From: a phage | Strand: one strand, 5' to 3' | Sequence record: PZ583740.1 | DNA length: 27,851 bases | Shown here: one piece after another, positions 1,067 through 27,851 of the stretch | How positions within the stretch are numbered: the first letter of the stretch is position 1 | How the letters are laid out: each line of letters begins with the position of its first letter | Program-made: the position numbers and the translations under genes | Notes under the pieces: generated by a model | Databases searched by the model: none | The model's input: only the letters and a program-made list of their open reading frames with translations | What the model was told of the DNA's origin: nothing

Positions 1067-1519
1067 ATGGCATACTCCGGGAAGTGGCAGCCAAAAAACG
1101 TTGCCAAGTACAAAGGAGACTGGAAGAAAATCACATACAGGTCAAATTGGGAAAAATTTGTATTTAATTGGTTAGATAATCATCCAGATGTGATACAATG
1201 GGGCTCTGAGACCGTAATTATTCCATATTTCAGTAATGCGGATGGTAAAAAACGCAGATATTACATGGATATGTGGGTGAAATTCTCAAATGGACAACAG
1301 TTTTTCTTTGAGGTCAAACCCAAAAAGGAAACAAGGCCGCCAGCAAAACCAGTCAATACGACCGCTGCAAGTAAGAAGAGGTTTATGAACGAAATGTACA
1401 CTTGGGCCGTTAACAAGGATAAGTGGAAAGCAGCGCAGGCCGTAGCCGATAAAATGGGCATCCAGTTTAGATTGATTACTGAAGATGCGCTTAGAAAAAT
1501 GGGATATAAGGGTTTATAA
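1067..1519 (+). CDS. 4: Head completion protein gp4
   Basis: 150 aa, MAYSGKWQPKNVAKYKGDWKKITYRSNWEKF..., length and sequence match T4 gp4; divergent from gene 53 as in T4. Confidence 0.85.
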   Translation: MAYSGKWQPKNVAKYKGDWKKITYRSNWEKFVFNWLDNHPDVIQWGSETVIIPYFSNADGKKRRYYMDMWVKFSNGQQFFFEVKPKKETRPPAKPVNTTAASKKRFMNEMYTWAVNKDKWKAAQAVADKMGIQFRLITEDALRKMGYKGL

Positions 1520-2247
1520 TGTACGATTGTTCAGATTTTAACATCACAAATGGCGAGATAGTGGGACAAGGCGATTTTAATAAATCAAAAACTTTGATAT
1601 TTGTAAAGTGCTTTATATGTGAAGAAACATGCAAATACAAAGCAACTGTTTTAAAGCATAAGTTAAAAACAAAAAGTTGGTGTTCTAATTGTAATTTAAA
1701 ACGTTCTTATGGTGAAAGCAAATTAATATCTGAATTAGATGCAATCACAAGAATAAATTCCGTGAATCCATTGTATAGTTTTGATAAATGGGATACCACA
1801 TATTCAACTTTTACAAAATCAAAAGCCTATATAAAGTGTTCTACATGTTCAACCAGTTGGATTACAAATCTAAACAACTTTACAACAAAAAACAAAGGAT
1901 GTCCAAACTGTTGTCACAAAGGATTTAACGCAAAGAAACCTGCTATTGTTTATGTTAATAAAATAGAATATCCGGGCGGAACTGCTTTAAAGTATGGTAT
2001 AACTTCCAATCATGATTTTAGATTGTGGCAGCAAAATCATTTTTCCAAATGCATTAGTTCCAAATTATATTATCGAGAATTTGAACTGGGTGCACAAGCC
2101 AAAATGTTAGAATCCGCAATATCTGTATTATATATAAAAGACAGAGGTTATTTGAATAAAGATATTATGGTCGATGGCTATACAGAAACCTTACCATACT
2201 ATTTAAAAAATGATTTGATTAATTTTATAGAAGGATGGAAAGGATGA
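1519..2247 (+). CDS. Cys-rich putative endonuclease: N-terminal zinc-ribbon pairs plus GIY-YIG-like C-terminal half
   Basis: 242 aa. Two CxxC...CxxC units ([13 protein letters not shown]; CSTCS..CPNCC). C-terminal [33 protein letters not shown] resembles the I-TevI GIY...YVGSAKDFEKRWKRHF core. Start overlaps gp4 stop (TAATG), stop overlaps gp2 start (ATGA). Confidence 0.45.
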
Positions 2248-3071
2248 GTATTTTTACATTTATCAATGAATCTGCAGATAAACCAGGTCCGAAACCCAGT
2301 AAATCAGAACAACAATGGGTTGAAATAGGGGTTGAATTTTATACAGCAAAAGAAAAGGGAATGACCTCGAAGAAGTTTGCTGAAGAGAAAGGAATCAACT
2401 ATTCGACCTTTACCAAAAGCATGTCAAGATATCATTCGAGAATTCAGACTGCTTATAAAGTATCCAAGCTCAAAAAGAAACCTGCCGGTAAACTTACGAA
2501 GGCTGAACGTCAGCTGATAATGGTGAATAGCTTTAGAAAGAGCATAAGAGATAAGATTGCTAACGAAGGCGCTGCAAGCAACACCAAATCTGCCAGATGG
2601 TTCGCTGAGACAATTAAGAAATCAGTTCGGGGCCACGTAACGGCTAAACCTCAACCGGGTAAGATTTATGCTTATATCTATGATGCAAAGCATAAGGATA
2701 CTCTTCCGTACTGGGACAAATATCCGTTAATCATTTATCTTGGGCTAGGTAAGCACAATTTGATGTATGGTTTGAACTTGCACTATATTCCACCGAAGGC
2801 ACGTCAAGAGTTCCTTGAGGAACTTCTTAAGCAATATGCCAATACTCCTACGATTACGAACAAGACTCATCTGAAGATTGATTGGTCAAAAGTGAAGGGA
2901 TTTAAAGGGGCTGACCAGATGATTAAAGCATATATACCTGGCAATATAAAAGGTACTATCACTGAAATCAAGCCCAGCGACTGGGCAAATGTGGTATTAC
3001 TCCCCCTTCAGCAGTTTTTTTCAAAAGGCAAAAGATTTTCTTCACAGAAAGTATGGAGAAATTCACTTTGA
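2244..3071 (+). CDS. 2: DNA end-protector protein gp2
   Basis: Position between genes 4 and 3 as in T4; about 275 aa from ATG at 2244 (AAGGA upstream). Sequence recall for gp2 is weak, so the call rests largely on synteny and size. Confidence 0.65.
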
Positions 3072-3727
3072 ATTATCAGTTTATATATTCATCGTTAATT
3101 GAAAGGGCCCGTAACAGGGTCCTGATTTCATATAAAGAATCTCATCACATCATTCCGAAATGTATGGGTGGTTCAAATGCTCCGGATAACTTAGTCGATT
3201 TGACTCCCGAGGAACATTATGTAGCCCATCAACTATTGGTTAAAATATATCCTACAAATCCAGGTTTAAGTTTTGCTGCCACATCTATGAGTCAGTCAAG
3301 CAAGTATTTGAAACGCAATAATAAATTATTTGGCTGGTTAAGACGCAGACACGCTGACAATATTTCTAAAAGCCAAACCGGTAAAGTTTACTTTAATAAT
3401 GGTGTCAAATCGATAAAACTATTTCCATGGGAAGATGTTCCGGATGGGTTTGTCAAAGGAAGACATTACAGCCCAACCAAGGGTACAAAACATTCTCGCA
3501 ATAATGGACATTTTAAAAATAAAGAGATTCAGGACGAATTGAGAAAGCGCCGGTGGGAAAAAGATAGGCAAGAAATGTGTAAAAACTTCGGAGTTGATAC
3601 CATCGAGCAAGCTCGAGAGTTGGTCCTAGCATATAAAAAGGAATTGCATCCTCGATACTGGGTAAAGCCAATGTTGGAACGTTATCCGTTTATGACTAAG
3701 CTAAGACTTAACACATTAATAAAATAA
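3053..3727 (+). CDS. HNH homing endonuclease (free-standing)
   Basis: 224 aa with HNH motif [29 protein letters not shown]; inserted between genes 2 and 3, overlapping the gp2 3' end by 19 nt. Confidence 0.8.
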
Positions 3728-15567: not shown

Positions 15568-15595
15568 TAGAGTCTCCGAAGTTTGTCTATTACTT

Positions 15596-15603
15596 TATTT
15601 ATA
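15596..15603 (-). promoter_or_regulatory. T4-type late promoter (TATAAATA on minus strand) for gene 20
   Basis: Reverse complement of 15596-15603 is TATAAATA, 28 nt upstream of the gp20 ATG; overlaps the stop of the upstream endonuclease gene. Confidence 0.5.
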
Positions 15604-16186
15604 TTGGAGTTCGGGTACAATTTTTATGATATCGAACAATCGCAGAGCGAGTGGACTCCGTACCACATACGGGACAAATTGCACGAGGTAAATTTAATGA
15701 TTTTCCTTTATTTGGATGTTCTTTACCAAACATAGGATTATTTTCACCGCTCATTGCTTTAGAATGGTCTGGTCGTTTTCTTCCTGATAATGCTTTGGAT
15801 TGTCTTGGACGTTTAACACCAGTATTGCTTTTATTTCTTTTATCGATAGATTCCTGTGTCCAAACCTTACCTTTCATCGACATACCAAAAAATCCATTTG
15901 GTTGAGCTAATGACATATTTATATAGTTTGGTGATTTAACCACATTGTATAATTTTTGTACTCGTAATTCTTCTTCAATAGCTTCTTCGTGCGTATTAAA
16001 TGTTTTTAAGATACGAGTTTTAAACAACTGAGGATTATCACGTAATTCATTTTTCCAAATGGTTTTATATTTTTTAGAACCAACGGAACCATGATAATTT
16101 TCAGTTATTCGTTGAATAGTTGTCGAGCCGATGTAACGACGGGGAAGGAGATTCCCCGTATATACTGTAAGATAAGTGCAATACAT
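15599..16186 (-). CDS. GIY-YIG homing endonuclease (Seg-like)
   Basis: 195 aa; N-terminal YLTVYTGNLLPRRYIGST (GIY...YIG), NUMOD3-like repeats (SGRKRPDHSKAMSGENNPMFGK), C-terminal CPVCG...HKNC zinc finger; GGAG RBS. Confidence 0.8.
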   Translation of the reverse strand: MYCTYLTVYTGNLLPRRYIGSTTIQRITENYHGSVGSKKYKTIWKNELRDNPQLFKTRILKTFNTHEEAIEEELRVQKLYNVVKSPNYINMSLAQPNGFFGMSMKGKVWTQESIDKRNKSNTGVKRPRQSKALSGRKRPDHSKAMSGENNPMFGKEHPNKGKSLNLPRAICPVCGTESTRSAIVRYHKNCTRTPI

Positions 16187-16232
16187 TCAAATTTCTCCAC
16201 TTCATTGTTTGAATGTATTTATTATGTCACAA

Positions 16233-16598
16233 TTATTCCCACCAGTCAATTGCGAACGTCGCTTCGAACGTCTCAATCTCATTATTGGAGTCCCAATCCA
16301 TCTGGACTTCCCCAACGTTGGTTGGCCACATGCCGGTAATAACAACTTCTTTCGTAACGGTCTTGCCATCACGATGGAACTGGCGGACAGTAGCGGTTTT
16401 CTTATAATCAGCAGGAGCTGCACCGGTGATTTCGTTAGTCATACCGTGACACAGATTTTGCCAATCAACAATTGCTTGACGAACTTTATGAGCATCGTCG
16501 TTATAAATCGTAATAGTCCAGTCATCAAATGTACGGTCACCCGCCACGTTGATTTTACGGTTCATGTAACCGACCGGAACTTTTTCTACAATGCCGAT
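16233..16598 (-). pseudogene. 19: Tail tube protein gp19, 5'-truncated fragment (about 42 N-terminal codons missing)
   Basis: In-frame region ...IGIVEKVPVGYMNRKINVAGDRTFDDWT...NEIETFEATFAIDWWE matches T4 gp19 residues ~43-163; an in-frame TAA at 16599-16601 and the gp11 stop at 16636 leave no room for the N-terminus. Confidence 0.6.
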
Positions 16599-16635
16599 TT
16601 ATCGCTAATGTGTTTTAGCGTGTTAGTCGTTGTCA

Positions 16636-17301
16636 TTACGATACTCGCTTATAATGGTAAAGTGAAATTGCGCCATTTGCTGTGCCACCTGATAATGTCT
16701 GGGTTGAAGTTCCAAGATATTCCCATGAACCATAACCACCGCGCGGTTGCTGTGTAATAGTCTGGCTAAGCGTACAACCATATTGAGTGAAAGGTACAAA
16801 ATTATGGTTTTGGTAGTCGTTATATGTAATATTTAATATAGACTGGTCCACACTATCAATTGCAGAGCTTGACACAATTAAACTATCAGCAACAGCCGTC
16901 AGCAAAGCATCGTTAACCTTGGAAGCAACTAATACAGCCGAATCCCCGACAATAACCTCAACTGGAATACCAAAAATGAAAAATAAAACAGTATCACCAA
17001 CCCCAGCACCAGAAATAGAACCGGTGAATTTAATTTTATCCGACTGGCTGATTGCTGCCGGAGAAAGGTTATTTGTATTAGTAATTACACTACCAACTGG
17101 AAGCTCGTATCGAAATGCGATATCATCTATTGCGCTCTGAACTGTTGGGTAAAAAATACCTTCGGTTGTCTGTGTTGCGGATGGGCCGCCGATTGCTCGT
17201 TGACCCATAACAGCCGTAATATTTTTTGATGTATTTTGAAATTCTAAGCAACTAGCAAGGCGGGAAATTACTCCAGCCTTTTTATTCGTTAATGTTTTCA
17301 T
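16636..17301 (-). CDS. 11: Baseplate wedge / short-tail-fibre attachment protein gp11
   Basis: 221 aa, M..NKKAGVISRLA...YHYKRVS matches T4 gp11 start and end; start overlaps gp10 stop. Confidence 0.8.
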   Translation of the reverse strand: MKTLTNKKAGVISRLASCLEFQNTSKNITAVMGQRAIGGPSATQTTEGIFYPTVQSAIDDIAFRYELPVGSVITNTNNLSPAAISQSDKIKFTGSISGAGVGDTVLFFIFGIPVEVIVGDSAVLVASKVNDALLTAVADSLIVSSSAIDSVDQSILNITYNDYQNHNFVPFTQYGCTLSQTITQQPRGGYGSWEYLGTSTQTLSGGTANGAISLYHYKRVS

Positions 17302-19112
17302 TAAGCAATCCTTACCCAGCGATGAGCAATCAAATATGGAGGCATTGTATAAACCGGTTGAGCTTGAGGGTCTTGTGCCTGATTAATGGTGGCTTTATCT
17401 TCTCTGTATTTGGTATAAGCTGGACCTTGTGCATCTGGGTCTACCTGGCAACCGCCGACAACAATCGGACCATTATCATCAACAACTAATACTTTCTCAT
17501 CGGTTTCAAGTTTAGGTACGTTTATATCTTTAATATGAACTTCAACACTACCACCTGTGCCGCCTGCCGTCGCTTGTGGGTTACCACCAGAATCCAGGTC
17601 ATTATTGTTTGTATGGAAGTTTGAGGCAGGGTCGTCCGACCAGGCAACGATTACACGTTCTTTCAAACGTTTCCATGAACCGAATCCCATATAAGTAACC
17701 GGGTTATTCGGGTTAACCGTATTTTCGTAAATTGTACCGACCGGATAGAATAATTCAAAGATAGCGCCAACAGAAGATGGAACAACTTCCTGAAGACCGA
17801 CTGGTTCAACGTTCGGTGCAAACGGATTATCAAAATCTGTAATACGTACACGACCAGTTAAGCTCAATGTATTTCCCTGAGAAACATAAAGAGTGTCAGT
17901 CTCATCACGGATTTCATCCATGGTCATAGTTGTGCCGATATCGTTATTGTACCAAATGACCGACAGAATATCACCGTCTTCAAATTCACGATAAATGCTA
18001 ATACCTTCGATGCGGTTGTCATCATCAAATTGCAGCAAATAATCCTGGGTTGATTCAGACCAACTGCCACCATTTGCGCTACATTCTGCCGCAGTGGAAC
18101 CTTGCGCACCTTCGCAATAAAATACTGGAGTTCCTGCAGTCCCGGCTTGGTGTTGTAAAATACTGTTAATGAATACCTGACATGCATTTGGGTTAATTGG
18201 ACTACCCGGAGAAATACCAAGTTCTTCAATTGTAAAGGTGTGTTTGGTTGTCAAATCCGTAACAATCAAAGAACCATTAATTGTTGTTTCTTTGGTCCTG
18301 TCCTGACTACGAACAAGTACATCACGACGATTATACGAACTACGCCATTGTGCAATGCCATCATTAAATGTTCGGATGATAACCGTATCACCTTCAGCGC
18401 ATGGCATTTTCAGACGGATGCTTTTACCATCAAGCGCAACGATTTCACCAGGGTTTGCACCAGGGGAACCAAATTCAGCATTCACCGGGTCGAAAATATC
18501 ATCTTTACCATAAAACAGGTCGTTACCACGATGTTTGACTTCTAAGTTCGATACGCTATACGGAATAGCACCAAACACATTGATAAAGTCAGTTTGTCCT
18601 TCGGTAGCAATAAACTGTTGGGATGCAACTGTAGCAACGTCGTTATTTGAAATTTTATCGACTTGTTTATTATCGATATATTCCCAACGACCTGGTGAAC
18701 AATATACAAGTTCAAGGTCGGCTAAGTTGCGTTTAATTTCTACTGGATTTGGTGAGCCTTTAATCGTATCCCCGACTGCAGGAACAATTGTCACCGGGTT
18801 GATTTGCCAGGTAGCAAACACATCACGCAATCGAATTACATAATTGTATTCTTGAGTTGTTCCTTTCGGGAGGACGACTCGAACCGCACCGGCTGATGTA
18901 TCGATGGTATAGCTTCGACCCATAACAGCAGACAACTCGGTGCCTTCTTGTGTAGTCCAAGTTTTCCATGCACCAGCCGCATGAGGATTTTCACCATCAC
19001 CCAGCTGATAATAAAGGTCGTCAAAGTTATTGTTTATTTTTTGACCGCCGAGACGAAGGTAATCACCAGTACCATCATCAACCATATTGCCAATTTTTAA
19101 ATTCTGTTTCAT
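17301..19112 (-). CDS. 10: Baseplate wedge protein gp10
   Basis: 603 aa, MKQNLKIGNMVDDGTGDYLR...NPNNPVTYMGFGSWK...NNDLDSGGNP...AHRWVRIA matches T4 gp10. Confidence 0.9.
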   Translation of the reverse strand: MKQNLKIGNMVDDGTGDYLRLGGQKINNNFDDLYYQLGDGENPHAAGAWKTWTTQEGTELSAVMGRSYTIDTSAGAVRVVLPKGTTQEYNYVIRLRDVFATWQINPVTIVPAVGDTIKGSPNPVEIKRNLADLELVYCSPGRWEYIDNKQVDKISNNDVATVASQQFIATEGQTDFINVFGAIPYSVSNLEVKHRGNDLFYGKDDIFDPVNAEFGSPGANPGEIVALDGKSIRLKMPCAEGDTVIIRTFNDGIAQWRSSYNRRDVLVRSQDRTKETTINGSLIVTDLTTKHTFTIEELGISPGSPINPNACQVFINSILQHQAGTAGTPVFYCEGAQGSTAAECSANGGSWSESTQDYLLQFDDDNRIEGISIYREFEDGDILSVIWYNNDIGTTMTMDEIRDETDTLYVSQGNTLSLTGRVRITDFDNPFAPNVEPVGLQEVVPSSVGAIFELFYPVGTIYENTVNPNNPVTYMGFGSWKRLKERVIVAWSDDPASNFHTNNNDLDSGGNPQATAGGTGGSVEVHIKDINVPKLETDEKVLVVDDNGPIVVGGCQVDPDAQGPAYTKYREDKATINQAQDPQAQPVYTMPPYLIAHRWVRIA

Positions 19113-19981
19113 TATACCGGTACTCCGATTGTTTGGGCGGAAATTACTTTAATAGCGAGCTTCATGGCAGTGGGTGAGCTTATAGCCGCCTGAATGATAT
19201 CCTGGTTATCAATTCTAAAATCGATGGCATATATCTCATCTTCTTCATTAGTTTGTCCACGTCTGATTACAGCGTATTCTGTGCTATATACCTTGCGGTC
19301 CTTAAGGTCGATGTAAAGTAATATTTCTGATGCTTTGTATTTAGTTTCGTCTGTTGAAATAGCTGTCAGCATCAATTTGATAGTTTTATAATCTGCGCGG
19401 AAAGCAAGTGGAATATCACGAACAACCGAGCTCATATTGTATGTTTTGTCGAGCAATACAGATTGGTTGCCAAACATACTTTCAATTTTGTAGTCCCAGG
19501 TCCCTACGCCGTTAGCATCGTCAATACACCACAATGTAATTTTTGTATAAGGCTGAGTAAATTTCATTTTGTTCGTTGCAGCAGTCAGGAATGAATCCGT
19601 GCCTTGTAGTTCAACTTCCAGAGGCAACGAGGTGGATAATGAACCATTGGAGTTAATAAAGATAACACCTTCGCCTGCTTTACCTTTTGCAATTCTTGCA
19701 GTGATAACACCTTCGGCAGTATTGACATCTCGCATAGAACCGAGAGCAACAGTCGAGTTCCATTCGATGATATTTGTGGCTTTTTGATAGTAGCCAGTCG
19801 CATGAAGTACCTGGGAGTTTTCTCCATTGTTCACAGAGTACAGACGCTGGTCGCCGAATGTATTATACAAACTGTCTAAATCCACGTTCAGTTTACGACC
19901 GCCTTCATATAGAATATCACCGGTGCTGGCGTTACCAATCTCGCCGATGTCTACTAATAATTTTGGGGTTTGATTAATCAT
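19112..19981 (-). CDS. 9: Baseplate wedge / long-tail-fibre socket protein gp9
   Basis: 289 aa, ...GEIGNASTGDILYEGGRKLN...HATGYYQK matches T4 gp9. Confidence 0.85.
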   Translation of the reverse strand: MINQTPKLLVDIGEIGNASTGDILYEGGRKLNVDLDSLYNTFGDQRLYSVNNGENSQVLHATGYYQKATNIIEWNSTVALGSMRDVNTAEGVITARIAKGKAGEGVIFINSNGSLSTSLPLEVELQGTDSFLTAATNKMKFTQPYTKITLWCIDDANGVGTWDYKIESMFGNQSVLLDKTYNMSSVVRDIPLAFRADYKTIKLMLTAISTDETKYKASEILLYIDLKDRKVYSTEYAVIRRGQTNEEDEIYAIDFRIDNQDIIQAAISSPTAMKLAIKVISAQTIGVPV

Positions 19982-20008
19982 AGGTAAGCCTCGTTATTGA
20001 TATAGCTA

Positions 20009-20016
20009 TATTTATA
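20009..20016 (-). promoter_or_regulatory. T4-type late promoter (TATAAATA on minus strand) for gene 9
   Basis: Reverse complement of 20009-20016 is TATAAATA, 27 nt upstream of the gp9 ATG, with a GAGG RBS between. Confidence 0.55.
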
Positions 20017-20020
20017 GAAT

Positions 20021-20045
20021 AAAAAAGGGACCCGAAGGTCCCTTG
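20021..20045 (-). terminator. Rho-independent terminator immediately after gene 8
   Basis: On minus strand GGGACC-UUCG-GGUCCC followed by U6 (plus-strand A-run 20021-20026); sits just upstream of the gene 9 late promoter. Confidence 0.6.
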
Positions 20046-21050
20046 TTAGAATTCAAAAATAATGTTAACTTCTTCTGTCTGGTCCATTGCACGAATAATC
20101 GGTGGGCGGTTTTCCATATAAATCATTTCCCCGGAATGACGGTCCAAATCAATTGCATCGTAGTATTCTTTGATTGCTTTGATATTTGGGTCATTAGGAT
20201 GTACTTTAACTTCAAGTGGGTTGGATATAATCGACAGCTGGCGGAAGCCTTTGTTCCCTGGAAGACTGAACTCTGGGAAATAAATGGAATCCATAAATGC
20301 TTTAAATCTGATTGTATATCCTTTGATTCTGTATATTAAACCGAAATCATCTTGTTGCCAGCTGATATTGTCTTTGTAACCCCAACGTGATGGGTCTTCT
20401 TCAATTTCTTCAGGCCATGGAACAACAATATATTCGTTAGTACAACGGTTGATGGATACATCAGGTGGAATCTCATACAAATATTCCCAGAGATAACCAT
20501 CGCCCATATCGACTCGTCCTTCTGTATCACCAGTCCCAGCTGGAGCTCTCGTCGAGTTATATTCTGCAGTCCATTTACCACCGAGTTTTAAACACTCTTC
20601 TTTATTGATAATAGAATAAATGGAGCAGGTCCCAACATCAGGAACATCTACACAGCGATAAACCATCCAACCTTTACCAACATCAGTTCGGTTATACGGA
20701 GCACTGTTAGCTACAACAATTTCCCCTACCTGGAAGTTAAGCGGATTGGGATATCTGATATCGCCCCAGTCTTTACGTGGGACAACACAATCAAGCATTG
20801 ACTTATAAACTTTGACTGCACCCATCATATTTGTCCAAGTATCTTCAACACCTTGTGCCGTATCAACCGGATAAGGCGGGGCGAACCCCGGGTCATTCTC
20901 ATTTGATGCCCAGGGTTCAGCACGACCGAATGTTACATACATCGTATTCTGGTCGGGCTCGTTGCCAATCATTTTATAAAAGTTATACATTTTTTCAGTT
21001 CGAAATTTCGAGGTAATTATCGAACGATAAACTACAGATGAATTATTCAT
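20046..21050 (-). CDS. 8: Baseplate wedge protein gp8
   Basis: 334 aa, MNNSSVVYRSIITSKFRTEKM...CTNEYIVVPWPEE...GEMIYMENRPPII matches T4 gp8. Confidence 0.9.
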   Translation of the reverse strand: MNNSSVVYRSIITSKFRTEKMYNFYKMIGNEPDQNTMYVTFGRAEPWASNENDPGFAPPYPVDTAQGVEDTWTNMMGAVKVYKSMLDCVVPRKDWGDIRYPNPLNFQVGEIVVANSAPYNRTDVGKGWMVYRCVDVPDVGTCSIYSIINKEECLKLGGKWTAEYNSTRAPAGTGDTEGRVDMGDGYLWEYLYEIPPDVSINRCTNEYIVVPWPEEIEEDPSRWGYKDNISWQQDDFGLIYRIKGYTIRFKAFMDSIYFPEFSLPGNKGFRQLSIISNPLEVKVHPNDPNIKAIKEYYDAIDLDRHSGEMIYMENRPPIIRAMDQTEEVNIIFEF

Positions 21051-24000
21051 TTACCTTTACCTGTGTGGGGTCTTTCGGGTCGCGTGGATTACCAATATCA
21101 TCCTTAAGACGTTGATTAACCAAATTGCGCCAGTTCGCAAAAGTCACGGCAGACTGGTCAAACAATGGACTGTATTTTTTACGACGTTCAGACGGGAGAG
21201 TCCCATGAAAATCTGAAAAATCGTTTTCGGCGTCATAATCTGCTGGTAATGGGAACGGTAAACCTGCGTTAGGAGCAATATTATATACTGCTTCGCCTGT
21301 AACAGCATTATGCTCAATGTTTCCATCGGCTCCAATAACTGCGATACGGTCACACCATTCTGACGGAATACCCGACGACCAACGATAGTTGTTCAGTTTA
21401 TTGATAATGGTTTCTGTGTGTTTTAATGACAGACCAGCATTAACAAACATTGTCAATAATGTAATTCCAACGAATCCAAATCCAACCGGATGAACAAATC
21501 GCAATACGTCATTACGATAACGAGATGTCGGGAGACTTGATTTAATGGTCATTACATAGTAAGAACGATTTCGGTTGATATAATCGATGTTATTGCTAAG
21601 TAATTCTTTCCCGCGAACGCCCTGAACAATCATGCCTTCAAAGGAAGTCCTTTCGGATTTAATTTCTTGCCCAACAATAAAGCGACCAAGCAAGTTATGA
21701 ATCGTGATACGCCATCTCAATTTACCCTGTTTGTAGTCACGCTCCATATAGGTAACGTTACTGCGGCCAGTTGATGTGTAAATTGTTTGCCCAACAATAT
21801 CTTCGCTGATATTATCGGATTCGACGATTATGTCATACTCGGTTCCGTTCTTGGATTCAATATCGATTTCAACGTCTTCATTATATAACAATTTGAACAA
21901 AAATTTATAGGATGCTTCAGTCCCCTTAGTTGCCCAAAAATCAGACTGTCTTGCTTCAAAGAAACGAACTACTTCGTCGCGCTTGGTCTTTGACAAATAT
22001 ATGTTTCTTTTGTACATTTCGCTCCAAAGGTATTCCCATGCATCTTCCTCGCGCGGGTACTGGTTGCGAATTAAGTTCAAAAGGTTGTTATAATATGTAC
22101 CAGAGCCATCACTGATAAACTGCAAATAATATTCACAGAATTTTTCGAAGTTGCTATCCTGGAGCAAATAACTATCCGGAACCATCTTTGTTAAAAGAGG
22201 ACGCAAGTCCGGGTCTTTCTCTTGTTCATCATTATCCGGGGTCCATGGAATATCATGTTCCTGGTTCTGTAATTCTGCAGTGAACATAACTTCTTTCGGT
22301 TTCCAGATTAATCTAACTTCATCACGCATACGATAGTCGAATTCAAAATAACCAATAAGCTCACCAGTATTTTTATGTAACATAATACCCGAGGCATATT
22401 TTTTAAAGCCATTGAATTCGATGTTAGGAGAAGTAACTTTCACTTGACCTTTATTCCAGTATTCGTGCACAATACGTTCAGGGGATGAACCACCAAAGGT
22501 ATCGATAATCTTTTGATACAGCATGTCATTATATACAACCAGAGCTCTGTCTGATGTGGTAATCCAACAACGAGTATCATCACGGCGAGACCAGTTAAAG
22601 AACGGTTCAGCGTAATATGACATACGTCCAGGTTTAAACTCTTCCCAACCTGAATCTTTATTCGACCTAAAACTCATCATCAAATAATGCTTGTCATGTA
22701 TCCATTGTTCATCATACACATATTTGACTGCTTCGTTAACTTCTTCAGGATACTTAGCAGGGAGTTCGGTATCTGGCTCAACGGAATAACGGAAGTTACT
22801 TGAACTGATAAAAAGTTCAATTCCATCAGTTGACATGCTTGTGTAACCATGTTCAATACGGCGACGTTCATCCTCTGTATTACCAAAAACTCGTGTCCAT
22901 GTATCGGTATCGGTATTTAATTTATAAACGCCCTTTGATAATGAATCGACAACGTTTTCAGGCTTAGTCGGGTCTTGGCGTTCTTCCTTTACTTCACCCG
23001 TGATTAATGCAAACACTTCACCGTCAATTGAATCCATCTTGTAACAAACAGCTTTTGGGTTGCCGCTTATTGTGCTATATCCAGCTTCAAATAATTTTTC
23101 ACCGAATGTTGGAGAGTTAGGGTCATTATCAATTGGAGCATCAGAAGATTTAGCTTTGTATACACGGTCGCGGCCAGCAACGTAAATCATGGAATCGGTC
23201 GTAGTAATTGCTTCGGCAATTGTTGAGATATACGCCGGAAGTCTTGCGTATGTGCCAAATATTTCAATATCAAATCCGAGATTGATATCTGAACCAATTT
23301 TTGCAAATGTTATATCCTGAGAACTGAATCGAACATCATCAGCAGACCATCTTATGTCACTTGATTTACGACCGTAAAAAATTCGGTCATATCCGAGTAC
23401 ATAAGTTGTCGTATCTGATTGATAATAAATTGTGCGCGATACTGGGTTACCGATACGGTCATTAAACAATTTTACATAATACCAGTTCTGCCCTTTATCA
23501 TTGGAGACTTTGACAGTTGTCTGGAATCGTTCAAACAAATACAGTACACCACCGAGTTCAGCAATCATCGTACGATTAACATCGTTACATACTGGCTGAA
23601 TACTACCCTGAATTTCGTGATATTGGTCTTCTTTTAATACATAGTTTGAAATTGAAGACAAATGAGAATAGGCAGGAGTAAAGCTAAAATCTTCAGACAT
23701 CAGCGATGCCATAATTGCATCATTATTAAAGTTGATATAAGCCTGGTTATTGTTTGTGAATTTTTCTTCGATGAATTTATTTGTTAATGTAAACTCACGC
23801 ATGTGTTCAAATGTGTATGCGTTAGTTGCAAAGGTTTCAAATTCTTCGGTATAAACCCAATCAGATTGTTCAAAACCCATTGCTGCAACAGCAACACGCA
23901 TTTTGTAAAATGATACTGGACGAATAAAATCTTGTTCGAACCATTCATTGTCTGGAGTATAACCTAAATTCCTCCATAACAGATTTTCTTCTGGAATAGC

Positions 24001-24141
24001 AACACCATTTTCTTTTGTCGGAGCAATCTCAACAAAATAATAAAAGTTGGCGCCAACATTATCCCATTTTATGCTAACCTGGTTAGCAGATAGTTTATCA
24101 ATCCGTAAGCTGGTTACATAAGGGGCTTTAACACTCATCAT
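21043..24141 (-). CDS. 7: Baseplate wedge initiator gp7
   Basis: About 1032 aa from MMSVKAPYVTSLRIDKLSANQ... with AAGGAAA RBS; long matches to T4 gp7 (DVRFSSQDITFAK, YYAEPFFNWS, RNLIRNQYPREE). Track ORF extends upstream to a non-ATG start. Confidence 0.9.
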   Translation of the reverse strand: MMSVKAPYVTSLRIDKLSANQVSIKWDNVGANFYYFVEIAPTKENGVAIPEENLLWRNLGYTPDNEWFEQDFIRPVSFYKMRVAVAAMGFEQSDWVYTEEFETFATNAYTFEHMREFTLTNKFIEEKFTNNNQAYINFNNDAIMASLMSEDFSFTPAYSHLSSISNYVLKEDQYHEIQGSIQPVCNDVNRTMIAELGGVLYLFERFQTTVKVSNDKGQNWYYVKLFNDRIGNPVSRTIYYQSDTTTYVLGYDRIFYGRKSSDIRWSADDVRFSSQDITFAKIGSDINLGFDIEIFGTYARLPAYISTIAEAITTTDSMIYVAGRDRVYKAKSSDAPIDNDPNSPTFGEKLFEAGYSTISGNPKAVCYKMDSIDGEVFALITGEVKEERQDPTKPENVVDSLSKGVYKLNTDTDTWTRVFGNTEDERRRIEHGYTSMSTDGIELFISSSNFRYSVEPDTELPAKYPEEVNEAVKYVYDEQWIHDKHYLMMSFRSNKDSGWEEFKPGRMSYYAEPFFNWSRRDDTRCWITTSDRALVVYNDMLYQKIIDTFGGSSPERIVHEYWNKGQVKVTSPNIEFNGFKKYASGIMLHKNTGELIGYFEFDYRMRDEVRLIWKPKEVMFTAELQNQEHDIPWTPDNDEQEKDPDLRPLLTKMVPDSYLLQDSNFEKFCEYYLQFISDGSGTYYNNLLNLIRNQYPREEDAWEYLWSEMYKRNIYLSKTKRDEVVRFFEARQSDFWATKGTEASYKFLFKLLYNEDVEIDIESKNGTEYDIIVESDNISEDIVGQTIYTSTGRSNVTYMERDYKQGKLRWRITIHNLLGRFIVGQEIKSERTSFEGMIVQGVRGKELLSNNIDYINRNRSYYVMTIKSSLPTSRYRNDVLRFVHPVGFGFVGITLLTMFVNAGLSLKHTETIINKLNNYRWSSGIPSEWCDRIAVIGADGNIEHNAVTGEAVYNIAPNAGLPFPLPADYDAENDFSDFHGTLPSERRKKYSPLFDQSAVTFANWRNLVNQRLKDDIGNPRDPKDPTQVKVNE

Positions 24142-24169
24142 GGTTTCCTTAAAAAGCCTCCGAAGAGGC

Positions 24170-26116
24170 TTATAGTGTAATTGGTTCAAGGTCAATCTTT
24201 GTATATTGAGGACGAAGGCCATTCTCAAATACAATCAGTGAACCATCTTGCGTGTATATATTATCTTGGTTAGGACTTGCATAAAGTTCGATTGATTGAA
24301 CTTCAAAGCGCTCGGAGGTCAATCCAATCGCGGCGATATCCCAAAAAATATAATCAGAGTAATAGTCAATTTCGCCAATTGCGTAATAAACTGTTTGGTC
24401 AGCCGGAGCTTCCATTTTATTAAAGTCATCTTGTAGGTAAGGCTGAATGTTTACGTTTTCAATAACATCGCCTGGACGGAATGGACCAATTACCATTTTA
24501 CCATCACCACGAGAATCTTTATCAGTTGCAACAATGCGAACGTTATAGGCTTCACCCGTGGTCGGAACAAATTCAAATTCACTTGATTCGACTGAACGGT
24601 TGCCATACTGGTTATAGTATTTAATGCCGGATTCTGGAGTCTTAAAGAAGTTCAGGACTTCACGCACCATCGAAATGGTTGCAGATGAACCAAGAATACT
24701 ATGGTCAGTATTATCCACATACGTAAGCATTTTTGACTTAGCAAAACTTCTGTTAAAGATTTCAACTTCATCGATATAATAACGGTCAATCTGATTAATG
24801 ATTTGTGCTTGCAACCATTGTTCAGATTCTTGTAATTTGTTCAGCGCATAAGATACTTTGATATTATGTTTAAGAAACAAATAATCCGGAGAAATTACCG
24901 AGGGTGTAATTGTTGATACGTTGAACTCACTAAGATAGTTCTGGATGTCCTCACGCTGCACTGCAGTGAGATACAAGCCCGATTTAGGCTTAACTGATAT
25001 AAACGCATACCCAGGCTTATTTGCGTCTGTAAACGTCTGTACGGCTTGCACGATTGAACCAAATCTTTCAGATACGAAGGTATCATAATCTGTTCCGGTG
25101 ACAGCACGCATCTGCGCTTCACGTTTAACAACAGCCAGTTCACGGATACGTTCGATATCTTCTGGGTCACCGCCGCCATCGGCACCGACATAATCAGGGT
25201 CGTTGTTGTAGTTTTCAGTAATTTTATCCACTGTGATATAAGACAAAGTATCGGCATAACTGAAATCAACAGCACCGTTTGCATCTGCCCCTGAGGTGCG
25301 AAGATATTCAATAACAATTGTCGAATCTTGCACAGGTTTGAGACCGCCAATATAGTTGGCTTCCATAACGCCGCCGGCTACGGATTTGGTGGATTCACCT
25401 TCACCGAAGAAAAATTCAGTATAGTCATCGATTGTTTCACGCATATAAAATATGGTGGAAGTCGAACCAGCATGGACCATTGATTTGTTCGTCCAGTCAA
25501 CCCACTCAACACCGTTCACATATAACTTAACTTCTTTGCGGTCGATATCCGGGTCGCGAATAAGAATAGGTTGTTTCGGGTCATATAAAAGTTCTGTACG
25601 AATAATACGACCCTGGGCTAGAGATACAATCGGAAGGTATTGGTTGTTAATATCTTTAACCGCAATAACGTTTTCCGTGGTAACAAAAACATAAGGGTCA
25701 GCTGATGTATCACGAGCATAGGCCAGGAATTTAGTTCCTCGTGGGATTTCGATATTCGATGGTTGCAGAGCATGAGAACATGTCAGCATAACCGAAGTCT
25801 TTGCGGCCGAACGTGAAGATGGAAGATATCCATTATCCTGTGCCGCCTGAACAACCGAAGACCTTAAGTTTGCAGTTCCGATAAATGATTCGTAAACTGC
25901 CGTGTTAGCAAACTGTTGCATATACAATGTATTGTATGCAAGCATATCAATCAGGATATTCATTCGCGAACCGACGAAATCATAATCCTTAAATTCATCC
26001 TGGCTTGATAACCAGTCGATGATGTTCTTTTTAATTTCTTCAAACGTAGCTCCCACAAATACTTTTGGGATAGCGTTAACGGTTCTTGTTAATTGGTAAT
26101 TCGTAGGAGTAGCCAT
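24170..26116 (-). CDS. 6: Baseplate wedge protein gp6
   Basis: 648 aa, [22 protein letters not shown]...GADGGGDPEDIERIRELA...SLIVFENGLRPQY matches T4 gp6. Confidence 0.9.
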   Translation of the reverse strand: MATPTNYQLTRTVNAIPKVFVGATFEEIKKNIIDWLSSQDEFKDYDFVGSRMNILIDMLAYNTLYMQQFANTAVYESFIGTANLRSSVVQAAQDNGYLPSSRSAAKTSVMLTCSHALQPSNIEIPRGTKFLAYARDTSADPYVFVTTENVIAVKDINNQYLPIVSLAQGRIIRTELLYDPKQPILIRDPDIDRKEVKLYVNGVEWVDWTNKSMVHAGSTSTIFYMRETIDDYTEFFFGEGESTKSVAGGVMEANYIGGLKPVQDSTIVIEYLRTSGADANGAVDFSYADTLSYITVDKITENYNNDPDYVGADGGGDPEDIERIRELAVVKREAQMRAVTGTDYDTFVSERFGSIVQAVQTFTDANKPGYAFISVKPKSGLYLTAVQREDIQNYLSEFNVSTITPSVISPDYLFLKHNIKVSYALNKLQESEQWLQAQIINQIDRYYIDEVEIFNRSFAKSKMLTYVDNTDHSILGSSATISMVREVLNFFKTPESGIKYYNQYGNRSVESSEFEFVPTTGEAYNVRIVATDKDSRGDGKMVIGPFRPGDVIENVNIQPYLQDDFNKMEAPADQTVYYAIGEIDYYSDYIFWDIAAIGLTSERFEVQSIELYASPNQDNIYTQDGSLIVFENGLRPQYTKIDLEPITL

Positions 26117-26793
26117 TATTCTGAATCCTGTTTAAATTGTTTTATCATTTTGTCATAAGCCGTATTTGGAAATCCGTTTTCAATGGCCAATCGTGTCATT
26201 TTTCTCCAACCTGGCTTATCATTTTCTTTCCATAATTTGAATAAAATATCATATGATTGCCAAATGGGGTGTTTTCTATTATTAAGTTTGCATAGGTCAA
26301 TAACAGATTGAGGTCTTGGTCTTTTATATAAAGGATGCTCTTCTCCTCTAACAAAAACCCTCGGTTTTGGAGGTAGCTTAGGTTTTCTCCTTTTGGCCAT
26401 AGCTTTTTCAAAATTTTCAATATGTTCTTTACTTCTAGGTGGCTTTGGCCTACCCTTCATTTTGTCTGATGTTTGCTTTTTTGAAGATTCCTTATGCTTT
26501 CTTCCTCGCATACTTCCTTTGCCACCCAAATCTATATTATAATATCTATCATCATAAATTATAGATTCGTCTACTAAAAATTCTTCGTAGTCGTAAGCTT
26601 CATCTTCAGTATCAAAAAATTTTATTATTTTTGTCTCAAACGAATCCTTTCCATATTTTTTATAAGCCTTTTTGATAAGCTCCCCTGTGCCGTAATATCC
26701 ATCAAACATATCGTCAGTAGAATGTTTGCCTATATACTTTTTACCATTTTCTAGGTTTGTAGTTACATATACAAAATTAAATTCTTTGTTCAT
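26116..26793 (-). CDS. GIY-YIG homing endonuclease (Seg-like)
   Basis: 225 aa; N-terminal [18 protein letters not shown] (GIY-YIG), basic NUMOD-like central region; start overlaps gp5.4 stop, stop overlaps gp6 start. Confidence 0.75.
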
Positions 26794-27083
26794 TTTATGA
26801 ACACCTTCCCTGAAGCTTGTGCGACAGTATCACCACATGAAATCGGGTCTGCCATTTGAACAGCTTTCTTACCGGTAACAAATACTTTTGATGTGCGCGG
26901 TTGTGTTACTCCACCGTGAGTTTCATATGGTTTTTTAATTTCGGTATGCTCGGTAATAGGGTCTCCGGCAACTAACACCGGAATTCCCCCGGTGAATACT
27001 TTACCTTGAGTTGCATTAATTACAGTCGGTGGCCATGCTTCGTGGCCTGCTGTAACACATTGATTGAAACTTAATCCAGCCAT
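26790..27083 (-). CDS. 5.4: Baseplate spike tip protein gp5.4 (PAAR-like)
   Basis: 97 aa, same length and position as T4 gp5.4. Confidence 0.65.
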
Positions 27084-27604
27084 TAATCCCTCGTGTATAC
27101 GTATGAACGCAGTTTATCTGCCCATCTTGACCAGTTACCAACGATAGTTTTTGTGTAAACTTTTGTCATTGTCTTTCTTACTGGAGCAGGAGGTGGGTCG
27201 GTCTCATTACCTGCACGGCTATTACTGCCACCAGAGCTCCCTGTGTCTCCGCCAGAGCTCTCTTCTTGAAAGTCATAGGTTAGGGTTACCGTGTATGAAA
27301 AGACCTTCTGGAGGCTCGCTGGGGCCCTCCAGAGATACAATTGAGTACTCTTATCGGTAGGAAGGTCTTCCCATGAACCGGCAGTTTTGAATTCATCGTT
27401 AAGTCGGTATTTAAGCGCATCATCTGCAAATCCGAACACGGATTCATAAACACCATAAAGATGATTACCCTCAACATTAACGCCAGGGGTGGCCTCATAT
27501 TCAGTTATATTTATTTCGACTAATGTTTCGTTTGTTTCTAATTGAGCTGTAAACGTAACATCGATTGAGGCTCCTTCCATGGAGTCTCCTAGGTCAGTGC
27601 TCAT
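27083..27604 (-). CDS. 5.1: gp5.1-like protein
   Basis: About 173 aa from ATG at 27602-27604 ([11 protein letters not shown]...); position directly downstream of gene 5 as in T4. Track ORF starts further upstream inside the gene 5 3' end. Confidence 0.55.
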
Positions 27605-27614
27605 TGGAAGTATA

Positions 27615-27851
27615 TTAGCCAATGTCAATCCTCGAACCATCAATAGTATATTGACCAGATGCAATAGAACTCATTGTTGACATTGTTTCGGACCAATTGC
27701 CAGCCACGGTCATATCAACGTTTCCATTAACGGACCATTTGACATTACCATTTACCGTATAATCATGGTTACCTTCGACAAGAGTTTTTGCGTCACCTTT
27801 AACAGTTATTTCAGCATTACCTTCGACCAGAATACTTACATTACCTTTGAC
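27615..27851 (-). CDS. 5: Baseplate hub / tail lysozyme gp5, C-terminal beta-helix part only (gene start lies beyond window end)
   Basis: Reverse-strand translation VKGNVSILVEGNAEITVKGDAKTLVEGNHDYTVNGNVKWSVNGNVDMTVAGNWSETMSTMSSIASGQYTIDGSRIDIG-stop shows the VxGxxxxx repeat of the gp5 needle; stop at 27615-27617. Confidence 0.8.
   Translation of the reverse strand, partial: VKGNVSILVEGNAEITVKGDAKTLVEGNHDYTVNGNVKWSVNGNVDMTVAGNWSETMSTMSSIASGQYTIDGSRIDIG

Follow-up and report, generated by a model that had tools for sequence, protein, structure and literature searches.

A free-standing Seg-type GIY-YIG homing endonuclease gene at the junction of genes 5.4 and 6 in T-even phages

The seg gene and its neighbours

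The DNA analysed, referred to below as the window, is a 27,851-nucleotide stretch of sequence from a T4-like coliphage (record PZ583740.1). An earlier note on this DNA placed a 225-aa open reading frame with overlapping start and stop codons between a PAAR-like tip gene and gene 6, and both the reading frame and its position were confirmed. The locus comprises the following features.

24170..26116, minus strand: gene 6, baseplate wedge subunit, 648 aa, downstream neighbour (PHROG 219 gp6, 6e-205)
26114..26129, minus strand: 3' end of seg, comprising the gene 6 ribosome-binding site (AGGA at 26129-26126) and TAATG
26116..26793, minus strand: Seg-type free-standing homing endonuclease gene (seg), 225 aa, ATG start (Pfam, PHROG, TIGR01453 and T4 SegA matches)
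26787..26803, minus strand: 7-bp hairpin UGUUCAU-AAA-AUGAACA that includes the seg start codon (dG -5.2 kcal/mol)
26790..26793, minus strand: ATGA, in which the gene 5.4 stop overlaps the seg start, read from the sequence
26790..27083, minus strand: gene 5.4, PAAR spike-tip protein, 97 aa, upstream neighbour (PHROG 281 PAAR, 6.8e-37)

At the 5' overlap, the seg start ATG (26793-26791) is interlocked with the TGA stop of gene 5.4 (26792-26790). At the 3' overlap, TAATG, the last A of the seg stop TAA (26118-26116) is shared with the ATG of gene 6 (26116-26114). The DNA of this 3' end (26114..26129) is nearly identical even between alleles whose proteins are only 65% identical; seg-less relatives possess their own gene 6 ribosome-binding site and an 8-nt spacer. 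The GC content of the seg reading frame is 0.32, versus 0.41-0.45 for the flanking genes.

The ATGA overlap suggests translational coupling within a late operon. The T4 late promoter TATAAATA was not found in the minus-strand sequence from 24000 to 27851, sites with one mismatch to TATAAATA were no commoner than chance, and scans for sigma-70 promoters and terminators remained at chance level. The 17-nt hairpin at the start codon has a z score of -2.8 (4/200 shuffles), and its 5' arm is produced by synonymous changes specific to seg-plus genomes. Folding of the 101-nt region around the seg start is no better than that of shuffled sequences (z +0.7). Neither the X20 nor the L015 allele has the hairpin, which was treated as a minor feature because it is not kept in these diverged alleles.

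Three other endonuclease-like genes are located elsewhere in the window.

1519..2247: endonuclease (PHROG 681)
3053..3727: HNH homing endonuclease (PHROG 655)
15599..16186: GIY-YIG endonuclease (PHROG 314/10820)

The count of four endonuclease-like genes in less than 28 kb given in the earlier note is correct, as all four reading frames were confirmed, but the density that it implies depends on how the window is put together. The window consists of three non-adjacent pieces of a genome region of ~39 kb, joined in a different order and not colinear with the nearest genome, and therefore the 28-kb span is no true genomic distance.

Family assignment and domain architecture

The assignment to the Seg-like GIY-YIG endonucleases, proposed in the same note, is borne out by profile, sequence and structure comparisons. 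In Pfam, the 225-aa protein scores above the cut-offs of both PF01541 GIY-YIG (24.3 bits versus 22.6) and PF19835 SegE_GIY-YIG (27.6 bits versus 25), and it matches the PHROG 314 homing endonuclease family at 1.9e-42. The match to TIGR01453 (7.9e-14) extends to residue 140, with a score of 52.2 bits that is slightly below the subfamily cut-off of 56.05. A search of PDB sequences with the single seg sequence returned nothing meaningful; the family profile alone reached I-TevI, matching its catalytic domain (1LN0) with an E value of 0.003. The AF2 model contains the alpha/beta catalytic fold, with pLDDT of 78-91 for the GIY-YIG domain, and its best PDB match by Foldseek is I-TevI 1MK0 (probability 1.0, TM(target) 0.63, 95 columns). 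The Foldseek comparison with BFVD yielded 177 matches, and among the matches listed most are Seg-like or intron-type endonucleases. BLASTP alignment with T4 SegA gave 34% identity with an E value of 3e-31 over residues 3-221, spanning both domains, and T4 SegF also aligns in both domains. The overall architecture follows that of SegA and SegF: a basic linker joins the GIY-YIG nuclease at the N terminus to a helical domain at the C terminus.

26515..26793, minus strand: N-terminal GIY-YIG catalytic domain, residues 1-93 (alignment invariants, profile match to 1LN0, model, Foldseek match to 1MK0)
26314..26514, minus strand: basic, proline-rich linker, residues 94-160, two predicted helices (alignment, model)
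26119..26313, minus strand: C-terminal helical domain, residues 161-225 (alignment; model helices 162-224, pLDDT 61-68)

The key residues of the catalytic domain are Y9 (in the FVY sequence), Y20-I-G22, the invariant Y33-x-G35, E70 and N86. In an alignment with 21 relatives, no variation occurs at Y20, G22, E70 or N86, and conservation of Y9 is at least 90%. The profile alignment pairs Y9, Y20, G22, E70 and N86 with I-TevI Y6, Y17, G19, E75 and N90, respectively. In that alignment the catalytic Arg27 of I-TevI is without an equivalent in the seg protein, the position being occupied by D28. MAFFT introduces a gap opposite I-TevI residues 24-32 in the seg protein, T4 SegA and SegF, and the AF2 model of the seg protein forms a loop at the R27 position. 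Since the Arg is absent here and likewise in SegA and SegF, the protein is filed under the Seg subgroup and not as a canonical I-TevI-type enzyme, and the missing R27 equivalent is a trait of that subgroup. The seg protein and I-TevI of the td intron share the catalytic fold, the Tyr, Tyr, Gly, Glu and Asn residues, and the arrangement of two domains joined by a flexible linker. They differ in that I-TevI is intron-encoded whereas seg is free-standing, that the seg protein lacks the R27-bearing helix, and that its C-terminal domain is unrelated in sequence.

Residues 94-160 of the linker appear NUMOD3-like by eye. A NUMOD domain, for which the earlier note had suggested a profile search, was not detected, as Pfam NUMOD1, NUMOD3 and NUMOD4 gave no match in the seg protein at E values up to 1; NUMOD3 was matched in 8 of the 21 relatives. 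The C-terminal domain, presumed to be the DNA-binding and site-specificity module, has no match in Pfam and none in the PDB by Foldseek. Its conservation is confined to the lineage found between genes 5.4 and 6, with weaker conservation extending to T4 SegA and SegF.

T4 SegA, a GIY-YIG free-standing homing endonuclease that cleaves in uvsX, is the best T4 match, aligning in both domains and similar in length (221 aa, compared with 225 aa). The T4 segA gene is located at 23570-24235 and adjoins uvsX, whereas the window gene lies between genes 5.4 and 6. The copy in phage VR26 is annotated 'segA' in GenBank. The orthology which that annotation implies is ruled out by the different locus and the 34% identity, and the name is a best-hit transfer. 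Because the loci differ and the identity is this low, the window gene is best described as a paralogue of SegA with a probably different target. T4 SegF resembles it in being a free-standing GIY-YIG gene that lies between conserved genes and overlaps the upstream reading frame, and the C-terminal domains of the two proteins are similar.

Occurrence, alleles and cassette boundaries

Synteny comparison with T-even relatives upheld the insertion between genes 5.4 and 6 that the earlier note had described and showed it to be sporadic. The site is filled by seg in 4 of 544 matching phage records, the only named carriers among these being VR26 and CLB_P2, and is empty in ~540. Empty sites have the 8-nt spacer between the two genes (DK-13, UPEC01, RZ, VR7, VR20 and others), and these genomes lack exactly the seg stretch. 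Among the 64 records of Gaprivervirus and Dhakavirus only ~4 have the gene, which is therefore clearly dispensable. Apart from some metagenome contigs, seg is carried only by VR26 and CLB_P2 and by the Serratia phages X20 and LC53, at the 5.4/6 site every time. Protein identity to the window seg is 97.8% for VR26 and CLB_P2 and 65-67% for X20 and LC53. All relatives at 58-67% protein identity, the two Serratia copies included, are positioned between PAAR and gp6, and the lineage appears dedicated to this junction. At least 10 metagenome contigs encode the identical 225-aa protein in the same gene context. Scanning the seg protein against IMG/VR, JGI metagenome contigs and GTDB genomes added only VR26 itself. 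GenBank already annotates the near-identical copies of VR26 (AIZ02800.1) and CLB_P2 (UNI73014.1) as putative homing endonucleases, and the X20 copy (YP_010092310.1) and the LC53 copy carry the same annotation. Literature searches retrieved no paper on this 5.4/6 seg gene or on its VR26, CLB_P2, X20 and LC53 copies.

All seven distinct seg alleles are intact, without frameshifts or stops. The window allele differs from the VR26/CLB_P2 allele by 23 nucleotides and 5 amino acids, with dN of 0.010, dS of 0.153 and dN/dS of 0.07; the gene is under purifying selection. The window allele is identical at 678/678 positions in two Gaprivervirus backgrounds whose gene 6 sequences differ by ~15%. The VR26 allele is likewise identical (678/678) in Dhakavirus CLB_P2, the flanks of which are ~78% identical; around seg the identity of these two phages is limited to positions -26 to +92, beyond which it falls to ~78%. 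The flanks of the window gene are 98-100% identical to those of the seg-less DK-13 and UPEC01. Identical seg cassettes occur in four backgrounds, each with a common 21-nt donor-type flank. These copies imply recent transfers, and from such comparisons seg looks active and mobile. In contrast to T4 SegF, the tracts that the backgrounds share reach no further than 26 nt on one side of the gene and 92 nt on the other. The two flanks of the cassette are as follows.

26794..26814, minus strand: recoded 21-nt tail of gene 5.4 that accompanies seg (comparison of seg-plus and seg-less genomes)
26025..26117, minus strand: 93-nt run at the gene 6 start, identical in 9/9 Gaprivervirus and Dhakavirus genomes compared

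On the gene 5.4 side, substitutions specific to seg-plus genomes are located at 26814, 26810-26808, 26805, 26802 and 26799, with the exceptions that 26808 is unchanged in VR26 and that 26799 is already C in the seg-less IME08. The recoding replaces a Ser by Gly and creates GGGAAGG. The window has two extra donor-type bases, at 26820 and 26823. In the four E. coli-phage backgrounds the seg-plus-specific changes span -21 to -6; in Serratia X20 they span -20 to -2 relative to CHI14, and the same ~20-nt pattern is seen against both CHI14 and Virsaitis27. Thus, a recoded gene 5.4 tail of ~21 nt is present with every seg copy, including those of the diverged Serratia lineage. A visual search of the empty site for I-TevI-like CNNNG cleavage motifs produced a lone candidate, CTGTG at -34 to -30, which was rejected as it is retained in some seg-plus genomes.

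On the gene 6 side, the boundary of the cassette is hidden, since all the genomes compared have identical sequence over the first 92 nt of gene 6. The 93-nt run may be the right homology arm or the recognition region. A general constraint on the gene 6 start was considered but is not supported, as other genus pairs have no such block (RB7 versus CC31, 74%; X20 versus CC31, 71%). A clade-specific constraint may nonetheless underlie the conserved start.

Proposed homing at the 5.4/6 junction

The most probable explanation, and one that is held with good confidence, is that seg is a functional, currently mobile, free-standing T-even homing endonuclease gene of the GIY-YIG Seg type, whose lineage is dedicated to the 5.4/6 junction. 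Site-specific breaks, co-conversion and translation from overlapping codons are described for the Seg family (PMC2988022). The gene would share the transcript of the late baseplate operon, and its translation would be low and coupled to that of gene 5.4, with the ATGA overlap and a start codon placed in the small hairpin. The seg-plus genome would serve as the repair template, and the cassette copied would consist of the 21-nt tail together with seg. It would itself be immune, its target being split by the insertion and its tail recoded. Imprecise deletion of seg would be costly because its 3' end supplies the ribosome-binding site of the essential gene 6.

The short shared tracts point to cleavage near the insertion point, and the break would fall within ~20-100 bp of it. 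Such a distance is nearer to that of the intron-encoded I-TevI, which cleaves within 25 bp of its insertion site (PMC2988022), than to that of the distant-cutting T4 free-standing endonucleases, and a short cut-to-insertion distance would be a further likeness to I-TevI. A nearby cut would be atypical, since free-standing endonucleases are described as cutting hundreds to thousands of bp away from their own genes (PMC2988022). Alternatively, the common short tracts could reflect selection on the translation-initiation region of seg and not the position of the break. A more specific version of the homing mechanism is offered only tentatively: the lineage may cut within ~20-30 bp of the insertion, with the ~21-nt tail as the obligatory cut-to-insertion interval and the first ~93 nt of gene 6 homogenised by repeated homing and loss across the two genera.

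The sharp left boundary also bears on an unlikely alternative, in which seg is a passenger whose own nuclease plays no part and which spreads only by ordinary homologous recombination between co-infecting T4-like phages; the arms would be the conserved start of gene 6 and the end of gene 5.4. Gaprivervirus and Dhakavirus genomes are indeed mosaic and have further blocks of high identity in the vicinity, such as 27552-27653, and the 93-nt identical block of gene 6 is found in seg-less genomes too. However, random crossovers would not yield a left edge that is identical in independent backgrounds and in the diverged lineage. Strong purifying selection on the catalytic residues and the whole reading frame, and the retention of one site across the 58-67% range of protein identity, likewise argue against a passenger.

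It is quite improbable that the nuclease is kept for the benefit of the phage and is not purely selfish, either excluding the baseplate alleles of competitors or tuning 5.4/6 expression. The scarcity of seg among Gaprivervirus and Dhakavirus records speaks against such a role, as do the seg-less relatives, which manage with the 8-nt spacer and their own ribosome-binding site. Consistent with a benefit are the translational embedding of seg between two essential structural genes, the ribosome-binding site that it supplies to gene 6, the link between Seg enzymes and marker exclusion (PMC2988022) and the reported advantage of SegB in immune evasion (PMC13096335).

An inactive or decaying gene that is still intact is very improbable: although the Pfam scores barely exceed the cut-offs, no Arg lies opposite I-TevI R27 and no NUMOD domain was detected, the seven alleles are all open with a dN/dS of 0.07, the occurrence of identical copies in four backgrounds points to recent transfers, and T4 SegA and SegF are equal to the seg protein at the R27 position, SegA being reported as an active endonuclease (PMC2988022).

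With homing preferred, the gene adds one further lineage of free-standing GIY-YIG homing endonucleases to the T-even phages, one whose target would be the baseplate 5.4/6 junction and not a gene of DNA metabolism. It is an ordinary kind of phage element, and the identical copies in unrelated backgrounds mark its ongoing movement. Natural populations provide a ready-made experiment, with identical cassettes across two genera, a sharp 21-nt left edge and an invariant 93-nt gene 6 flank, which together narrow the probable cleavage site to ~120 bp. A cut adjoining the insertion point would stand in contrast to the distant cleavage described for T4 Seg enzymes. If a cut within ~20-30 bp proves true, the lineage would represent a free-standing endonuclease with the geometry of an intron endonuclease and minimal co-conversion.

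The seg gene and its product

Four endonuclease-like genes are found in the window.

Endonuclease-like genes of the window
1519..2247, plus strand: PHROG 681 endonuclease, 242 aa, 2.5e-29, between genes 4 and 2
3053..3727, plus strand: HNH homing endonuclease, 224 aa, PHROG 655 at 2.4e-56
15599..16186, minus strand: second Seg-like GIY-YIG, 195 aa, PHROG 314 at 4.6e-26, PHROG 10820 at 3e-32
26116..26793, minus strand: seg, 225 aa, ATG start

The position and size of seg are exactly those given in an earlier note, and the codon overlaps described there are present at both ends. Upstream lies a 97-aa gene whose TGA stop overlaps the seg ATG (26793-26791) as ATGA; downstream, a 648-aa gene has an ATG whose A is also the last base of the seg TAA stop (26118-26116), which yields TAATG. 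The proposed placement between a PAAR-like gene and gene 6 is borne out by the neighbours, a PAAR protein upstream (PHROG 281, 6.8e-37; T4 gp5.4) and baseplate wedge protein gp6 downstream (PHROG 219, 6e-205). The GC content of seg is 0.32 versus 0.41-0.45 for the adjoining genes. The AGGA ribosome-binding site of gene 6 is located in the seg 3' end, so only precise loss of seg would be tolerated; the DNA of this 3' end is nearly identical even among 65%-identical alleles.

The Seg protein narrowly passes the Pfam cut-offs for PF01541 GIY-YIG (24.3 bits, cut-off 22.6) and PF19835 SegE_GIY-YIG (27.6 bits, cut-off 25). It matches PHROG 314 'homing endonuclease' over its full length (1.9e-42), and residues 7-140 match NCBIfam TIGR01453 'group I intron endonuclease' at 7.9e-14, slightly below the subfamily cut-off. 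Searching PDB sequences with the single Seg sequence gave no match. A profile from an alignment of 21 relatives (A1) reached the I-TevI catalytic domain 1LN0 (E 0.003), aligning Seg Y9, Y20, G22, E70 and N86 with I-TevI Y6, Y17, G19, E75 and N90, which together with the Pfam scores upholds the earlier Seg-like GIY-YIG call. The AlphaFold model has a mean pLDDT of 76 (78-91 in the N-terminal domain) and its best PDB match is I-TevI 1MK0 (probability 1.0, TM 0.63, 95 columns); there are 177 BFVD matches at E <=0.001, those listed being chiefly Seg-like or intron-type endonucleases. T4 SegA is the closest characterised enzyme, although it resides at another locus and has only 34% identity to the seg product (BLASTP, E 3e-31, residues 3-221, C-terminal helical domain included). 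SegF has the same layout as both.

Two absences are points against a textbook GIY-YIG assignment. The NUMOD domain suggested earlier as a profile target is not detectable in Seg itself using Pfam, although NUMOD3 is found in 8 of the 21 relatives. Moreover, no Seg residue aligns with the catalytic Arg27 of I-TevI; in Seg proteins, T4 SegA and SegF included, a loop takes the place of the R27-bearing helix of I-TevI.

Layout of the window

The earlier count of four endonuclease-like genes stands, but not their location within under 28 kb, as the window is not one contiguous genome stretch. It derives from a Gaprivervirus-like T4 relative with 98.5% identity to vB_EcoM_RZ (RZ), against which it comprises three pieces of a ~39-kb region, joined as A-B-C where RZ has B-C-A. 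The junctions, 7564/7565 and 16595/16596, are blunt and without microhomology, and an exact search of IMG/VR for the first gave no match. Relative to RZ, the window lacks ~11.8 kb spanning genes 19 to 12 as well as ~1.1 kb of gene 5. It resembles a chimeric assembly or a string of joined contigs rather than a viable genome. The seg locus lies well inside one of the colinear pieces (16596-27851), and its context is confirmed by natural contigs.

At one junction rnlB is cut short; at the other the 3' part of gene 19 runs into the final 40 nt of gene 12. The ~11.8-kb loss covers essential genes (19 N-terminus, 18, 17, 16, 15, 14, 13, wac and 12), and the absent ~1.1 kb of gene 5 falls between window ends 1 and 27851. 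The 1519..2247 ORF weakly matches a treble-clef zinc finger (DUF4379) and is present in RZ, annotated hypothetical. The HNH gene, an insertion at window 3066-3723 that separates genes 2 and 3 and overlaps the gene 2 end, is lacking in RZ. The second Seg-like product matches that of seg (phmmer E 1e-7) and has a weak NUMOD3 match; window 15586-16232 replaces the 39-nt intergenic region between RZ genes 20 and 19, and a consensus late promoter, TATAAATA, occurs at 15596-15603, at the 3' end of this gene.

Filled and empty sites between genes 5.4 and 6

The synteny comparison with T-even relatives places the insert in few genomes. Among 544 records matching the 5.1-to-6 region it is present only in VR26 (Gaprivervirus) and CLB_P2 (Dhakavirus); the other phage records align in two pieces, skipping seg. 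The empty site, ...GCC TCA TCA AAA GTC TTT ATA AAA TAG GGAAATAAA ATG GCT..., consists of the stop of 5.4, an 8-nt spacer and the gene 6 start. The filled site reads ...GCT TCA GGG AAG GTG TTC ATA AAA TGA AC...[seg]...CAGGATTCAGAATAATGGCT. In the genus Winklervirus, Serratia phages X20 and LC53 encode a protein of 65-67% identity at this site. A collection of 5.8 billion proteins yielded just 20 family members at E <1e-5, and IMG/VR, JGI metagenomes and GTDB genomes, when scanned, contributed no more. For every full-length relative looked up (proteins P0003, P0004 and P0006; 58-67% identity), the coding gene is flanked by the PAAR gene and gene 6 on a T4-like contig.

Two metagenome contigs bearing a 58%-identical Seg (L015 2098-2712, L016 1756-2370) also have a 204-aa NUMOD3-containing ORF inserted between genes 5.1 and 5.4, and thus two endonuclease-like genes in the gene 5-to-6 interval. 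In Escherichia phage vB_EcoM_G8 (locus L019 1-1199; MK373787.1 77951-79987), a 678-aa 'hypothetical protein' ends one base before gene 6 and occupies the place expected for genes 5, 5.1 and 5.4, which may be either a quirk of annotation or a differing gene arrangement.

On the left side, differences between seg-plus genomes and their nearest seg-less relatives cluster at -21, -17, -16, (-15), -12, -9 and (-6) from the seg ATG in each of four E. coli-phage backgrounds, bracketed positions being unchanged in one of the comparisons (window 26814, 26810-26808, 26805, 26802 and 26799). Upstream of the cluster seg-plus genomes return to background divergence, with donor-type bases also at -27 and -30 in the window and two compared loci (L024, L025). 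The diverged Serratia lineage has the same boundary pattern: X20 differs from seg-less CHI14 and Virsaitis27 at -20, -11, -8, -5, -4 and -2 and next not before at least -65, and its GTG TTC codons also occur in the E. coli-phage cassette. The mobile unit is therefore the ~21-nt recoded 5.4 tail plus seg.

On the right side, a 93-nt stretch at the start of gene 6 (26117-26025) shows no difference among the nine compared genomes of Gaprivervirus and Dhakavirus, seg-less ones included. No other invariant run in the 3266 aligned columns is as long (runner-up 42 nt), and with distance from the junction between-genus identity declines bin by bin (96 nt each) from 100 to 88, 80 and 66%. No identity gradient exists on the 5.4 side, and no comparable block at the gene 6 start in other T4-like genus pairs (RB7/CC31 74%, X20/CC31 71%). 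From these alignments, the block may reflect homing-driven homogenisation, a recombination hot spot or a clade-specific constraint.

Proposed mechanism and mobility

Seg enzymes introduce site-specific double-strand breaks in seg-less genomes, and repair off a seg-plus genome copies the gene and flanking markers (PMC2988022). The enzyme would recognise the 5.4/6 junction where it is uninterrupted, in seg-less relatives; seg-plus genomes would be immune to their own enzyme, since their site is split by the 678-bp insertion and their 5.4 tail recoded. The break probably falls close to the insertion point, since the shared tracts are short and the left boundary is the same in independent acquisitions and in the diverged lineage. 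Such cleavage would differ from that of free-standing endonucleases, whose sites are distant from the gene (PMC2988022). The chief competing explanation is that the 21-nt tail persists as the translation-initiation region of seg, as it supplies GGGAAGG and a 7-bp hairpin enclosing the AUG (dG -5.2 kcal/mol, z -2.8). Many Seg-type genes overlap the upstream ORF, and their low-level translation is thought to occur via coupling or ribosome scanning (PMC2988022). No late promoter was found upstream of seg within the window, and co-transcription with the late baseplate operon is thus assumed.

All seven distinct seg alleles are intact, and comparing the window allele with that of VR26 gives dN 0.010 and dS 0.153. 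At least 10 metagenome contigs encode a protein identical to the window's, and on all of them the gene order is 53-5-5.1-5.4-seg-6-7. Six of these contigs carry seg DNA identical to that of the window (678/678) and split by gene 6 into two backgrounds, one RZ/UPEC01-like and one VR20-like, the latter only ~85% identical to the window's gene 6. A second allele is 678/678 identical between VR26 and CLB_P2, phages of separate genera with ~75-80% identical flanks, and the identical tract extends only from -26, counted from the seg ATG, to +92 of gene 6. The window's own flanks have 98-100% identity with seg-less DK-13 and UPEC01.

The VR26 and CLB_P2 copies, near-identical to seg, and the X20 copy (65-67% identity for the protein) are already annotated as putative homing endonucleases; the 'segA' name in VR26 is a best-hit transfer, and a literature search found no paper on their characterisation. 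The seg gene is an uncharacterised addition to a well-known kind of gene and, judging by its intact alleles, dN/dS values and identical copies across backgrounds, appears to be alive and moving.
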